From assembly GCF_030013595.1 (NCBI RefSeq), contig NZ_CP122768.1: a stretch of 64,000 nucleotides of DNA; one strand, written 5' to 3'. Under the pieces are notes generated by a model, which searched no databases, was not told the DNA's origin, and was given only the letters and a program-made list of their open reading frames with translations. A program made the translations under genes and the position numbers. Below are positions 12,027-19,360 of the stretch, in pieces (the first letter of the stretch is position 1; each line of letters begins with the position of its first letter). Origin of the DNA: Escherichia coli (lineage in GTDB: Bacteria; Pseudomonadota; Gammaproteobacteria; Enterobacterales; Enterobacteriaceae).

Positions 12027-13451
12027 ATGTCTGAATTTGAATTGCTCGTGAAAGATCTTCTTTTAAAATCAGAAGAAGACGAGAAAAAGCGACAAGAAAA
12101 AGATCGAGAATTAATTTCAAAGGTTCTTGAAATCTATGATCAAAAATATGTTGCAGAACTCCTACGAAAAGTAGGAAAAAATGAATGGAGCAGAGAAACA
12201 CTTAACCGTTGGATAAATGGTAAGTGTAACCCTAAACAATTAACTTCTGCTGAGGAAACTTTACTTCGAAAGATGCTTCCAGAACCTCCCGAACATCATC
12301 CTAACTATACATTTCGTTTTATTGATTTATTCGCAGGGATTGGTGGTATTCGTAAAGGCTTCGAAAATATTGGTGGGCAGTGTGTTTTTACTAGCGAATG
12401 GAATAAAGAAGCGGTAAGAACCTACAAAGCTAATTGGTTTAATGATGAACTAAATCATAAATTTAATCTTGATATACGAGAAGTCACTTTAAGTGATAGA
12501 GATGATGTTTCCGAAATGGAAGCCTATAATCATATAGACAAAAATATTCCAGATCATGATGTCCTTCTGGCCGGTTTTCCATGTCAGCCCTTTAGTCTGG
12601 CTGGGGTAAGCAAGAAAAATTCTCTGGGGCGTGCACATGGTTTTGAATGTGAGGCACAAGGAACACTATTTTTTGATGTCGCTCGAATTATTAAATCAAA
12701 AAAACCAGCTATTTTTGTGCTTGAGAATGTGAAGAACCTTAAAAGTCATGATAAAGGTAAGACTTTTAAAGTCATCATGGAAACACTCAATGAATTAGGG
12801 TATGAAGTCGCCGATGCTGGTGTGACTGGCTCAGATGATCCTAAAATTATAGATGGAAAACATTTTTTACCCCAACATCGTGAGCGTATAGTGTTGGTAG
12901 GATTTCGTAGGGATCTAAATATTCACAAGGATTTCACGTTACGAAATATTAACCGCTTTTACCCTCAAAACAGGCCAACATTTGGTGAATTATTAGATCA
13001 TGATGTTGACGACAAATATATTTTGACTCCAAGGTTATGGGAATATCTTTACAATTATGCAAAAAAACATGCAGCAAAAGGAAATGGATTTGGTTTTGGT
13101 TTAGTGGATCCTAAAAATCCAGATAGTATCGCACGAACGCTGTCTGCTCGTTACCATAAAGATGGCTCTGAAATACTGATCGATCGTGGCTGGGATAAGG
13201 CTGTCGGTGAAATCGATTTTAGTAATCCAGCGAATCAAGAGAATCGACCAAGAAGACTGACACCTCATGAATGTGCCAGGTTAATGGGTTTTGAAAAACC
13301 AGGGGGAAGACCTTTTAGAATACCTGTATCAGATACTCAAGCTTATAGACAATTTGGGAACTCAGTTGTTGTGCCAGTATTTGAAGCTGTAGCAAGATTA
13401 CTAGAACCGTACATACAAAAGGCTGTCAGCATGCAAGTTATTAACGATTAA
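12027..13451 (+). CDS. DNA (cytosine-5)-methyltransferase, Dcm / M.EcoRII-like
   Basis: 474 aa; C5-MTase motifs [40 protein letters not shown]; close to E. coli Dcm along its length; AT-rich codon usage unlike its neighbours. Confidence 0.9.
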
Positions 13452-13475
13452 TAATAATTAACTTTCACTATTGTG

Positions 13476-13497
13476 AGGCCTTTTTTATTAAAGGCCT
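13476..13497. terminator. Hairpin between the convergent methyltransferase and restriction enzyme genes
   Basis: aggccttt-tttatt-aaaggcct: 8 bp perfect stem in an AT-rich context. Confidence 0.5.
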
Positions 13498-13538
13498 CTA
13501 AATATATAATCATAAGTTATTATAAGTATACTTTTATA

Positions 13539-14744
13539 TTATATAAAATCTTCATACAGCGTTATTAACTGTGTGATAAAACCCTCTAACGTTAATAATC
13601 CATCCCTGATTTCCTCCGGATATTTTTTATGAAGAGGGGAAGGTACAACCAAGGTGACACCTTCAGCTCTCATTTCGTTAAATTGAGCAACTGAGACACC
13701 CTCTTGTAAGGTAAACAAATATATTTTGTTGATTTTATTTGCTTCATTGAGTGCCTGACGCCACCGATCCTTACATGTTGTTTTTACAGCAAGCATACGG
13801 AGTTTTTCTCTTGGAAAGTGATCATCATGGTAAGCTGCCGCTGATGGAAAAAGAAAATCGGGTTTCTTTTTTCCTTCAGTAATACATTGAGTAGCAAAAT
13901 GATGCAGTCCATGCTCAATAAAAATTTGCTCAAGATGTAGCTCCAGTGATTTCCCGGCTCGAGATTTTCTTCGATTACTAACAGAGTTAGCCATAGCTAT
14001 AAAATCATCTACAGAACCAAACCCTTGACGGATGATGTCCAGTACGTGAATTTCTTCAACCATTAGAAAGAGATCATATTCAATACGGCGGCGTTCTAAA
14101 AGTTGGTCATCTGGACTGGTTACGCCTGTTGGGTAATAACCCGCAGCATATTGAATAATCTCTAAGCCAGAAGGAAAGCTATGTTTCCAGCTTTCCGGAA
14201 TAACATATTCCTTTTGAGAGATTTTTGGCCTTGATGCGAGTACACCAAGTATTTCACTGGCAGGCCCAAACATTAAAGTTCCAGGAATGATCTCCCCAAT
14301 AGCTGATTCCAGTACATCCTCTTCTTCTGGGCTAACACAAACCCATACATCAACACTTTTGCTGTCTCTCCCTGGCTCATGTTCAAACGCAAGCACAGAC
14401 AAAGCACCTGTATTTTCCGGATCCTGTAGGGGACTGCCAGCCCCCCACCGAGTGATGCGTTTTTCATTTCTTGTTTGCCCGAAATACTTATTATTGTAGT
14501 AAATAGCGCGAACCTCACTGTCTACACATTCATGAGAGGAATAAGTTGCGCGCAATAAAACCGAAGGATTTTTTTCTGACGTATGATCTATAGATGGGAA
14601 AAGTTCAGCGACGATACCAGAAGGGATATATACCCCCACTTGATGCCCTCCTGTTGCACCAGTGTCGTTTGCTGAAAGACGTTTAATATAGAGATAGTTG
14701 TTACCACCGACCTTATCAAGCAGCCAATCTTGTAATCCTGACAT
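13539..14744 (-). CDS. Type II restriction endonuclease, EcoRII family (expected target CCWGG)
   Basis: 401 aa; N-terminal YIKRLSANDTGATGGHQVGVYIPS and the remainder match my recollection of EcoRII; convergent with the Dcm-like gene as in EcoRII systems; AAGGA ribosome-binding site upstream. Confidence 0.8.
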   Translation of the reverse strand: MSGLQDWLLDKVGGNNYLYIKRLSANDTGATGGHQVGVYIPSGIVAELFPSIDHTSEKNPSVLLRATYSSHECVDSEVRAIYYNNKYFGQTRNEKRITRWGAGSPLQDPENTGALSVLAFEHEPGRDSKSVDVWVCVSPEEEDVLESAIGEIIPGTLMFGPASEILGVLASRPKISQKEYVIPESWKHSFPSGLEIIQYAAGYYPTGVTSPDDQLLERRRIEYDLFLMVEEIHVLDIIRQGFGSVDDFIAMANSVSNRRKSRAGKSLELHLEQIFIEHGLHHFATQCITEGKKKPDFLFPSAAAYHDDHFPREKLRMLAVKTTCKDRWRQALNEANKINKIYLFTLQEGVSVAQFNEMRAEGVTLVVPSPLHKKYPEEIRDGLLTLEGFITQLITLYEDFI

Positions 14745-14797: not shown

Positions 14798-14831
14798 CAG
14801 AACGACCAGAACGACCAGAACGACCAGAACC
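14798..14831. repeat. 9 bp tandem repeat (CAGAACGAC) x about 3.7
   Basis: cagaacgaccagaacgaccagaacgaccagaacc, 54-87 bp upstream of the restriction enzyme start codon. Confidence 0.9.
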
Positions 14832-15222: not shown

Positions 15223-15651
15223 GTGAGTATCAGGTTACAACAGGTGAAGGCGTTGTTGCAGGGAATTCGTGACGATGACGCGCTGTATGATTCCCTGCGC
15301 GAACTTCTCCAGCGCCAGCGGATCTGCATGATTCGCCGCGCCAGCGAAGAGCTGCTGGCGGTAAACGAGGAGATAACCCATCACTATGAGCAGTTGCATG
15401 GGCATAGCCATCAGCGACACAGCCTGCTGAAAATGCTCGGTGTTAGCGTAAATCGTGACGGTCTGGCGCAGGTATTTGCCTGGCTTCCGGCGGTACAAAA
15501 AGCGGCAGCACAACAGTTGTGGCAACGCCTTGAGCAAAAAGCGGAACGCTGCAAAGCCTACAACGACAAAAACGGCGAGCAGTTGATTCGCCAGTATGAA
15601 TTTATTCAGTCTTTTTTAGGCAGCGAAGCGGATTTTCTGTACCAGGAATAA
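15223..15651 (+). CDS. lfgN: Flagellar export chaperone FlgN
   Basis: 142 aa helical protein; GTG start preceded by gagg. Confidence 0.75.
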   Translation: MSIRLQQVKALLQGIRDDDALYDSLRELLQRQRICMIRRASEELLAVNEEITHHYEQLHGHSHQRHSLLKMLGVSVNRDGLAQVFAWLPAVQKAAAQQLWQRLEQKAERCKAYNDKNGEQLIRQYEFIQSFLGSEADFLYQE

Positions 15652-15778: not shown

Positions 15779-16609
15779 ATGAGTTTTATTGAATGTTACG
15801 AACCGGAATACGTGCGCAATTTTATGACGCAATATCCCGATTCGCCTTTGTACATCCGCAAGGTGTGGAAAAACGAGATTCGCCTGAGCCTGATGCTGAC
15901 AGAGCCAGAAAGTTGCGAAGCGGTGCTCAACGATGCCAGGGCCTTTGATTTACAGCTCACCTACCGCCCGGCGGAAGAAAATGCCGCAGAGCTTTCCGCG
16001 CGCGATGCGATAGTAAACCAGGTCATTTTGAGTACCCTCACGCTCCCCGATTTAACCCCAGAGCTTTCACTATATGCCATCGGGATTTTACTCTCCCGCG
16101 CCAGCAAAATGCCGGGCAGAGACGGAGATATTCTTGCCCGTTTGACGACGCTGCCGCAGGCGCTGGCCGATCATGCGAAAAAAGGCACGCTACAGGCACA
16201 GTTCGCCCAACTTCCGCCCGTGCCACAGCTGGCGCGTCACCTGGCCACGCTACTCGGGAGTTTTACGTTTGACTGGTCGATTTTGCCGGAAAGCCCGCGC
16301 AAAACTTCGCTGCCGTTGCAGATGCCTTTGCTGGCGCTACATGACGCCAACAGCGAAGCCCTGGTGCAACAGCAGCTTCAGGCTCAGTGGCAAACCACCT
16401 GGCAACAGCATTTTGCCACCGCGCCCTGGATGATGCGTAACTGGCTGATTTACCGCGTTTACCATGAGGTGATTGGACAGGCAGACGGAGCAGATTATTG
16501 CCCGCTGGTGTGCGATTTTTATCTTATCCGCACGTTAATCAGTTTTATGGACGCTGGATGGTTCTCCGCTGCGACAGGAGGATATTTTCGCCCTTTTTGC
16601 GGTGTTTGA
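15779..16609 (+). CDS. Hypothetical protein (Flag-2 accessory)
   Basis: 276 aa ORF from the ATG after the sigma-54 promoter; the 3' end may be frameshifted (see findings). Confidence 0.55.
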   Translation: MSFIECYEPEYVRNFMTQYPDSPLYIRKVWKNEIRLSLMLTEPESCEAVLNDARAFDLQLTYRPAEENAAELSARDAIVNQVILSTLTLPDLTPELSLYAIGILLSRASKMPGRDGDILARLTTLPQALADHAKKGTLQAQFAQLPPVPQLARHLATLLGSFTFDWSILPESPRKTSLPLQMPLLALHDANSEALVQQQLQAQWQTTWQQHFATAPWMMRNWLIYRVYHEVIGQADGADYCPLVCDFYLIRTLISFMDAGWFSAATGGYFRPFCGV

Positions 16610-16729
16610 ACGCTGGCGAGAGAGTGAAAATGCGCTGTTTATTCGCCAGCAAATTCAGTCGTTATGTGCGGCAGAGCCGCTGCTTTCAGCATTTTCGCTG
16701 CTGACGTGAGTCGCTCTGTGCGCGCTTTT

Positions 16730-16840
16730 CCCCTCACCCTAACCCTCTCCCCAAAGGGGCGAGGGAACCGATCGAGCACGGTGTTAAAATCGGCGCTGGT
16801 TTTCTCCCCTCTCCCTGTGGGAGAGGGTCGGGGTGAGGGC
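16730..16840. repeat. GC-rich palindromic intergenic repeat, composite copy (near-identical to 6460-6570)
   Basis: cccctcaccctaaccctctccccaaaggggcgagggaaccgatcgagcac ... ctccctgtgggagagggtcggggtgaggg. Confidence 0.85.
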
Positions 16841-16888
16841 ATCAGCACGCACATTCATCACATTCACCCCTTAACTCACCCAGACACC

Positions 16889-19360
16889 ATGCCAACACAA
16901 ACCATCATCAAAACACTCGCCACCCACCGCGAAAAACCGTTTGTCAGCGTCGTCACGCCAACCTGGAACCGTGGCGCATTCCTGCCGTACCTGCTTTATA
17001 TGTACCGCTATCAGGATTACCCGGCAGACCGCCGCGAACTCATCATCCTCGACGACTCGCCGCAAAGCCATCAACACATCATCGACCGCCTGACCAATGG
17101 CACACCGGAAGCCTTTAACATCCGCTATATTCATCACCCGGAAAAACTGCCACTGGGCAAAAAACGCAACATGCTCAACGAACTGGCGAGCGGCGAATAC
17201 ATCCTCTGCATGGACGATGACGACTACTACCCGGCAGATAAAATCTCCTGGACCATCGCCATGATGCAAAAACATAGGGCGCTCATCTCCGGCTCCGACC
17301 AGATCCCCATCTGGTACAGCCACATCAACCGCATTTTCAAAAGCCGCAGCTTTGGCCCGCATAACATCCTCAACGGCACCTTTTGCTATCACCGTAACTA
17401 CCTGAAAAAGCACCGTTACGACGACGATAGCAATTTAGGCGAAGAGAAAAGTTTCACCAACAATTTCAGCGTTAACCCGCTACAACTGCCCGGCGAGCGC
17501 ACGATTCTGTGTATCTCGCACAGCCACAACACCTTTGATAAAGACTTTATTCTCGGGGCCAGCACGCCTGTAAACGCGGCGCTTACGGATATCGTCCGCG
17601 ATCCGCTGCTCCGCAATGCTTATCTGAGTCTGCATAACGCCACTCATCACCAGGCGATCAACCATCAGGCGATCGATCAGATCGTTCTGCTGAATCTGGA
17701 TAAACGCCCGGATCGCTTACAACAGATCCGTGAAGAACTGGCATTGCTGCATATTCCACCTGAGAAGATCACCCGCCTTGCCGCCAGTGAAGATCAAAAC
17801 GGTCAACGGGGTCGCCGCCAGTCGCACTTGCAGGCGCTGCGCCTGGCGCAACAGCACGGCTGGCAAAACTATCTGCTGCTGGAAGATGACGCGGTTATTC
17901 TCAAGCAGGAGAAACATATTCAGGTGCTGAACACGCTGCTGGCGAGCCTGGCGAAAATTCCCTGGCAGGTGATGATCCTTGGCGGCGAAATTTCGCAAGG
18001 AACTATGCTAAAAAGTTTGCCGGGGCTGGTGCACGCGCGGGACTGCCGCAAAGTGTGCGCTTATCTGGTGAACAGCCGCTACTACCCGCAACTGGCGCAG
18101 CAGATGAGCAACGATGAGCACTCGCTGGAAGCCTGCTGGCAGCCGCTGCTACACGCCGACAAATGGCTGGCCTGTTACCCGAGCCTTTGTTACCAGCGAC
18201 CGGGCTTTAGCGATATCGAGAAAAAAGTCACCGACAACATTAGTCACTATTTCAATAAGTTACACGTAACCACCAAGCCATCCACGTTACCCATCGCCGA
18301 CACCATCGGCTTTTTTATGGAAACCTCATTCCACTACGCGCTGTATCGCCCAATCATCACCGCTCTACAGGCGCAGGGGGAGAGCTGCACGCTGGTGATC
18401 AACGACCGCGTGTTTAAACCGTTTCTGGATGAAATGCTGGAGACGCTAAAAAGCATCGACGACCCACAGCTTAAAGGTATGCGCTTGTCTGAGATGCAGG
18501 CACACGGCCAGCGGATGAAATGCCTGGTCAGCCCCTACCACACGCCCGCGCTCAATGGCCTGGCAGCGGTGAACGTTCGCGCCATGTATGGCTTAGCCAA
18601 AGAAACGTGGAACCACGCCGACTGGAACCGTTTTTATCAGCGCATTTTGTGTTACAGCCACTACAGCCAGCAGGCGCTGGCGCATTTCGGTAGCGCAAAA
18701 GTGGTCGGCAACCCACGCTTCGACGCCTGGCATAACGGCACGTTCGACCGCACTCTGCCGGAAAATATCCAACCCGATTCCTGTAAACCTACGGTGCTCT
18801 ACGCCCCTACGTTTGGCGCACTAAGCTCCCTGCCCCACTGGGCAGAAAAATTAGGCCGCTTAAGTGGCAATGTGAATCTGATTTGCAAACTGCACCACGG
18901 CACCTGCTCGCGCCCGGAAGAAACTGCATCGCTGGCACTGGCGCGCAGGCATTTAAAACGGCGCACCGACTCCGCCCGCCACACGCTGGCGCTGCTGGCA
19001 AAGGCCGATTACGTGCTGACCGATAACAGCGGCTTTATTTTCGATGCTATTCACGTTGATAAGCGGGTGATCCTGCTCGACTTTCCGGGCATGAGTGAAT
19101 TGCTCGACGGCGAGAAAAGCTACTCCACGCCGGAGAGCGCCGATCAGCAAATCCGCGAAATATTGCCGGTGGCTCATGATATGGCAGAGTTGCGTTACTT
19201 GTTGTCAGAGGCGTTTGACTGGGGGGCGGTGCAGACACGGCTTAAGGAGATTCGTCATCACTATTGCGATGCGTTTATGGATGGCAAGGCGGGAGAACGG
19301 GCGGCGATGGTGATTGTTGAGGCGCTGGCGGACAAGGAACCGTCAGGGATATGTCGATAA
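16889..19360 (+). CDS. Three-domain glycosyltransferase: GT2 + GT25-like + TagF-like CDP-glycerol glycerophosphotransferase
   Basis: 823 aa from the ATG at 16889 (the longer ORF from 16664 runs through the repeat). GT2: VSVVTPTWNRG, ILDDS, CMDDDD. GT25-like: IVLLNLDKRPDR, LLLEDD. TagF-like: GNPRFD, VLYAPTFG, LTDNSGFIFD. Confidence 0.85.
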   Translation: MPTQTIIKTLATHREKPFVSVVTPTWNRGAFLPYLLYMYRYQDYPADRRELIILDDSPQSHQHIIDRLTNGTPEAFNIRYIHHPEKLPLGKKRNMLNELASGEYILCMDDDDYYPADKISWTIAMMQKHRALISGSDQIPIWYSHINRIFKSRSFGPHNILNGTFCYHRNYLKKHRYDDDSNLGEEKSFTNNFSVNPLQLPGERTILCISHSHNTFDKDFILGASTPVNAALTDIVRDPLLRNAYLSLHNATHHQAINHQAIDQIVLLNLDKRPDRLQQIREELALLHIPPEKITRLAASEDQNGQRGRRQSHLQALRLAQQHGWQNYLLLEDDAVILKQEKHIQVLNTLLASLAKIPWQVMILGGEISQGTMLKSLPGLVHARDCRKVCAYLVNSRYYPQLAQQMSNDEHSLEACWQPLLHADKWLACYPSLCYQRPGFSDIEKKVTDNISHYFNKLHVTTKPSTLPIADTIGFFMETSFHYALYRPIITALQAQGESCTLVINDRVFKPFLDEMLETLKSIDDPQLKGMRLSEMQAHGQRMKCLVSPYHTPALNGLAAVNVRAMYGLAKETWNHADWNRFYQRILCYSHYSQQALAHFGSAKVVGNPRFDAWHNGTFDRTLPENIQPDSCKPTVLYAPTFGALSSLPHWAEKLGRLSGNVNLICKLHHGTCSRPEETASLALARRHLKRRTDSARHTLALLAKADYVLTDNSGFIFDAIHVDKRVILLDFPGMSELLDGEKSYSTPESADQQIREILPVAHDMAELRYLLSEAFDWGAVQTRLKEIRHHYCDAFMDGKAGERAAMVIVEALADKEPSGICR

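Follow-up and report, generated by a model that had tools for sequence, protein, structure and literature searches.

Within the Flag-2 (lateral flagella) locus of Escherichia coli, an open reading frame annotated as a 276-residue hypothetical protein raises the question of whether it encodes a short protein in its own right or is the remnant of a longer gene whose reading frame has been lost. The window analyzed here is a stretch of 64,000 nucleotides of E. coli DNA (contig NZ_CP122768.1). From the letters alone, the original prediction had assigned the gene to a Flag-2 locus and proposed a 1-nt indel near 16540–16565, beyond which the true protein would be read in the +1 frame. The setting was recognized correctly: the gene is lafV of variable region 1 (VR1), and it lies between lfgN and lfiJ beside genes for flagellin modification. 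The gene order in the window is lfgL-B, lfgA, an EcoRII/Dcm insertion, lfgM, lfgN, lafV, an 823-aa GT2 glycosyltransferase, a cytidylyltransferase-like gene, lfiJ-E, lafK, lfiM-R and lfhBA. The FliB orthologue of variable region 1 is named lafV and is found in 342 of 592 flag-2 loci (PMC6993521). A literature search on ‘lafV’ returned De Maayer 2020 as the only relevant work. The gene and its immediate neighbors are as follows.

15223–15651, + strand: lfgN, a FlgN-like chaperone gene, the upstream neighbor at the edge of Flag-2 cluster 2.

15779–16709, + strand: lafV pseudogene of the FliB_C family in Flag-2 variable region 1, recognized from its length, its repair, the annotation of orthologues and the RefSeq label ‘frameshifted’.

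16717–16853, no strand assigned: GC-rich inverted repeat with two 48-nt arms of 75% complementarity, between lafV and the glycosyltransferase gene.

16889–19360, + strand: intact glycosyltransferase gene, the downstream VR1 partner of lafV, whose 823-aa product carries a GT2 domain (Pfam PF00535, E 6.8e-17) at its N-terminus.

The first sign that this gene is damaged is its length. From its start to the stop of its native frame, lafV spans 931 nt, which is not a multiple of 3. Intact orthologues have 930 nt, or more by whole codons, and the intact E. coli alleles measure 930 nt (933 nt in one allele type), giving a product of 309–310 aa. The annotated frame runs from the ATG at 15779 to a TGA at 16607–16609 and ends in the tail ...GWFSAATGGYFRPFCGV, whereas the +1 frame has no stop between 16539 and a TGA at 16707–16709 and reads SVLWTLDGSPLRQEDIFALFAVFERWRESENALFIRQQIQSLCAAEPLLSAFSLLT. 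Retranslation reproduced the coordinates of both frames and both peptides exactly as they had been predicted. The +1 frame was also expected to have no start codon of its own, and it indeed contains no ATG, its sole start-type codon being the GTG at 16602. The idea of a split gene that begins at this GTG was considered and rejected; no orthologue is split, and the resulting reading frame would have only 35 aa. An open +1 frame is by itself no more than would be expected by chance. When off-frame open stretches across the stop codons of the window’s 42 genes were compared, their median was 43 codons, and the other off-frame at the premature stop of lafV is open for 78 codons. The case for a frameshift, therefore, rests on homology.

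Comparison with related genes places the lesion precisely. In the DNA alignment, MSB1_4I, 360D-1 and 4/4, three intact or near-intact orthologues that all have TTT, show a gap opposite an extra T of the window, and pairwise comparison with loci L005–L007 and L017–L019 puts the indel at 16543. The surplus T belongs to a short run at 16543–16546, inside the interval that had been predicted, and deletion of one T restores an open reading frame of 309 aa. The native frame is left after Ser255, and 21 unrelated residues follow before a stop that comes 100 nt early. This weak tail, at which the annotated frame had been suspected to end abnormally, has no counterpart in any of the orthologues aligned. 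The true C-terminus consists of 54 residues in the +1 frame, LWTLDGSPLRQEDIF...LLSAFSLLT. The altered part of the gene can be described by three features.

16543–16546, + strand: frameshift site, a TTTT run with one surplus T in comparison with the TTT of all intact alleles (DNA alignment and pairwise comparison).

16544–16609, + strand: aberrant 21-residue tail FMDAGWFSAATGGYFRPFCGV and the premature TGA at 16607–16609, which form the end of the annotated 276-aa product (translation).

16545–16709, + strand: the stretch that encodes the true C-terminus, read in the +1 frame as residues 256–309 (54 aa, LWTLDG...AFSLLT), with its stop at 16707–16709 (translation and conservation).

The homology on which the case depends extends over the whole repaired protein. 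Its 309 residues are collinear with orthologues of 308–315 aa from Escherichia, Pseudocitrobacter, Citrobacter and Phytobacter, with an identity, over 100% of the length, of 81–91% to LafV of E. coli and E. marmotae and of 42–57% to more distant orthologues, including those of Citrobacter and Phytobacter. Conservation was assessed in an alignment of 39 sequences from the same four genera, down to 42% identity. In residues 256–309, nine positions are invariant (W257, D260, F273, E277, W279, R280, A304, S306 and L307) and seven more are nearly so, and the density of conserved positions in this segment equals that of the remaining protein. The alignment with orthologues that had been proposed as a check thus speaks for the alternative frame: its peptide is conserved, and no orthologue ends like the annotated one. 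When 1.84 billion representative proteins were searched with a profile, 138 related clusters were found, and the C-terminus of LafV was aligned with the very C-terminal end of FliB proteins of about 400 aa. A precomputed assignment to PF27117 (FliB_C) exists for the truncated product itself; a local Pfam scan of the repaired protein gave no match because PF27117 is absent from the local copy. The gene, thus, has the full-length homology (once repaired) and the VR1 position of the LafV/FliB_C family and lacks an intact frame of about 308–315 codons. With 931 nt and a premature stop at 16607–16609, it is a pseudogene.

The most obvious alternative is that the genome truly has TTT and that the extra T is a homopolymer miscall introduced during sequencing or assembly. 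Apparent frameshifts usually stem from single-base errors in homopolymers, and both complete genomes with the 931-nt allele come from one study of pigs in Winchester, UK. However, the T run is only 4 nt long, and the same allele recurs far beyond a single assembly. Eight NCBI drafts were read (L009–L016, from several projects and unrelated accession series), and each of the eight carries a 931-nt allele identical to that of the window. In an assembly collection, 78 blocks contain the exact truncated 276-aa product and 36 the exact repaired 309-aa protein. The RefSeq pseudogene ACR3H5_RS20775 of E. coli HCP5S3_I2 (NZ_CM149870.1), labeled ‘lysine-N-methylase, frameshifted’, is 100% identical over 931 nt, including the TTTT, and LCP30S3_I5 (NZ_CM149862.1) carries the same allele; in both strains, the EcoRII/Dcm genes, lfgM, lfgN and the glycosyltransferase gene are arranged as in the window. 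HCP5S3_I2 is the closest complete genome, and the window differs from it by 20 SNPs and five intergenic indels over 41 kb, yet the two have the frameshift in common. The window, thus, represents a distinct genome of the HCP5S3_I2 lineage. The presence of an identical allele in independent assemblies excludes an assembly error, and we regard the miscall explanation as extremely improbable. The frameshift is an inherited mutation common to many assemblies.

The mutation is nevertheless rare in the species. Among the 1278 complete E. coli genomes that have lafV, 1276 carry an in-frame allele and 2 the 931-nt allele; in an even sample of 1278 E. coli records, all 58 full-coverage matches other than the query were 1 nt shorter than the query. 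The closest intact alleles are those of L017 and L019, which have the EcoRII context of the window and whose lafV differs from that of the window only by the T and two synonymous SNPs (16024 and 16384); their product is identical to the repaired window protein. More generally, intact LafV (WP_000008087.1, WP_216781340.1 and the exact 309-aa protein in GCA_037642415.1) occupies the same position in the locus and is the same protein up to residue 255, while the window allele differs from it by one surplus T and the loss of residues 256–309. The lafV frameshift is, therefore, an ordinary, lineage-specific pseudogene that RefSeq has already flagged. The repaired frame is free of additional stops and indels downstream, and the insertion is, therefore, a recent event.

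It might be asked whether the shift is corrected during expression, so that some full-length, functional LafV is made, either because the ribosome shifts to +1 at the U run or because transcription slips there. The shift does lie at a homopolymeric U run (AGU UUU AUG), and slipping by +1 at this point would yield a protein close to the native one. However, known transcriptional slippage tracts are far longer than four U, and there is no in-frame stop, rare codon or upstream Shine-Dalgarno-like stimulator at the shift site. Neither a conserved shift nor a stimulatory context of the kind that marks a programmed, prfB-like +1 frameshift was found; since the frameshift is missing from orthologues, including those of all other genera, which are in-frame, the site is no conserved recoding signal. 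Moreover, an intact parent allele exists that, apart from the two synonymous SNPs, is set apart within lafV by the T alone. Recoding is, in our view, scarcely credible here. We hold with high confidence that lafV of Flag-2 VR1 has been broken in this lineage by the insertion of one T into a TTT run.

The damage is confined to this one gene. Every other Flag-2 gene of the window has its full length, and cluster 3 (lafA to lafU), as seen in the closest complete genome, is intact as well; lafV is thus the only broken gene of the Flag-2 locus. The order of lafV and the glycosyltransferase gene is kept in all the relatives examined. The latter starts 180 nt past the native lafV stop, beyond the GC-rich inverted repeat, so translational coupling between the two genes is not an issue. 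The inverted repeat, just before which the +1 frame had been correctly predicted to end, belongs to a dispersed intergenic E. coli family, since its halves (query 1019–1153) have multiple matches in each of 5172 genomes out of 5426 from E. coli, with a median of 8 places per genome. The strain 4/4 allele type does not have it. In an Rfam gathering scan of the window, nothing was found near lafV, the only matches being rRNA and tRNA at the far end, and a promoter and terminator scan gave nothing above chance.

Further observations concern the wider surroundings. A Dcm-type cytosine methyltransferase gene (12027–13451, + strand) and an EcoRII-like restriction endonuclease gene (13539–14744, − strand), both intact, form a pair (12027–14744) that is inserted between lfgA and lfgM and splits the usual lfgA-lfgM-lfgN run. 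Such EcoRII/Dcm cargo is known from 21 Escherichia flag-2 loci (PMC6993521). Between the EcoRII gene and lfgM lies an intergenic 9-nt tandem repeat, CAGAACGAC, with 3.7 copies at 14798–14830. One of the five indels that separate the window from the closest complete genome is a two-copy change in this repeat, with two copies (18 nt) fewer in that genome, which shows that strains of the lineage vary in copy number. Collinearity with the same genome stops at about 41077, within an RHS-repeat and orphan-toxin region, which is annotated there as several RHS fragments and an ankyrin-repeat protein. From this point on, the region differs between otherwise near-identical strains.

What the lineage has lost depends on what LafV does, and the family label of ‘lysine-N-methylase’ should be read with caution. 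LafV belongs to Flag-2 and FliB to Flag-1. In comparison with Salmonella-type FliB (NCBIfam NF038110; PMC8598068), the homology of LafV begins at about FliB residue 105 and runs to the C-terminal end, where it takes in the LL..L.LL motif. The profile alignment sets LafV residues of about 16–313 onto residues of about 99–407 of the ~400-aa FliB proteins, so a homologous FliB_C domain is present. The N-terminal part of FliB is different: its residues ~16–103, with the CX4CX3CC motif, are missing in LafV. FliB needs a [4Fe-4S] cluster that is held by this motif (C17, C22, C26 and C27); when all four cysteines are replaced by alanine, the cluster is missing (PMC8598068). No CX4CX3CC motif occurs in the window protein. 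Against NF038110, LafV scores 46.7 bits, below the cutoff of 85, and covers only positions 105–367 of the 373 in the profile, whereas true FliB proteins reach 158–293 bits over positions 1–372. Within the FliB_C family (alignment A4), CX4CX3CC is present in 48 of the 52 long FliB-type proteins; 24 short proteins have CxCxxC instead, and 77 short proteins, among them all the E. coli and Citrobacter LafVs, are Cys-less and have neither motif. The label, which rests on homology to a non-catalytic-looking part of FliB, appears doubtful because the cluster-binding motif is missing in LafV of E. coli and Citrobacter. Two separate and speculative readings may be mentioned, although we consider them rather unlikely: the TTTT allele could be an adaptive loss of function that alters the surface modification of lateral flagellin in a successful clone, and LafV of the E. 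coli type, instead of being a lysine methylase, could be a module without catalysis of its own that binds flagellin or serves as an adaptor in partnership with the glycosyltransferase encoded next to it.

The consequence for the protein can be judged from a structural model. The AlphaFold2 model of repaired LafV has a pLDDT of 91.2 and a pTM of 0.91, and the segment that is lost contains helices at 266–280, 283–296 and 300–308, with a mean pLDDT of 84–97 in 10-residue blocks. Based on this model, the removal of three confident C-terminal helices is likely to abolish the function of LafV. It could be argued that the 276-aa product, which retains ~83% of LafV, is still functional, or that its loss is adaptive, and that the allele is, in either case, kept by selection. 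In favor of this, the collection has the frameshifted allele in 78 blocks and its exact intact parent in 36, but these counts reflect the sampling of a clone and not fitness. Against it stands the missing segment, in which 9 positions are invariant and a further 7 nearly so; it is conserved to the same degree as the remaining protein and comprises the three helices. Maintenance of the truncated allele by selection is, therefore, quite unlikely. The truncated product of 276 aa probably fails to fold properly or has no activity, and lafV is probably a recent pseudogene.

Other lesions of lafV have been found in E. coli. The lafV gene of 360D-1 (locus L003) has an internal TAG stop; a different frameshift, with a 252-aa product, is represented by 29 member sequences (P0034); and P0025–P0031 comprise N-terminally truncated forms of LafV (277–281 aa) and in-frame deletions of ~29 aa. 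From these sequences, lafV appears to be recurrently inactivated in the species. The occurrence of independent lesions in other lineages fits relaxed or negative selection on lafV, a pattern that can also be cited in favor of an adaptive loss, and it suggests that selection on lafV in E. coli is weak.

The course of events in this lineage can be pictured as follows. Replication slippage, most likely, put one T into the TTT run. Translation now departs from its native frame after Ser255, and the conserved 54 residues of the C-terminus are not made. The lateral flagella of this lineage, if they are built, would consequently lack the contribution of LafV to flagellin modification, and it is uncertain whether this contribution is lysine methylation. 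In the annotation, a lafV pseudogene (931 nt, frameshifted at 16543–16546) should replace the 276-aa ‘hypothetical protein’, which is not to be taken for a novel short protein. In studies of lateral flagella and flagellin modification in these strains, a LafV-null background is to be expected.
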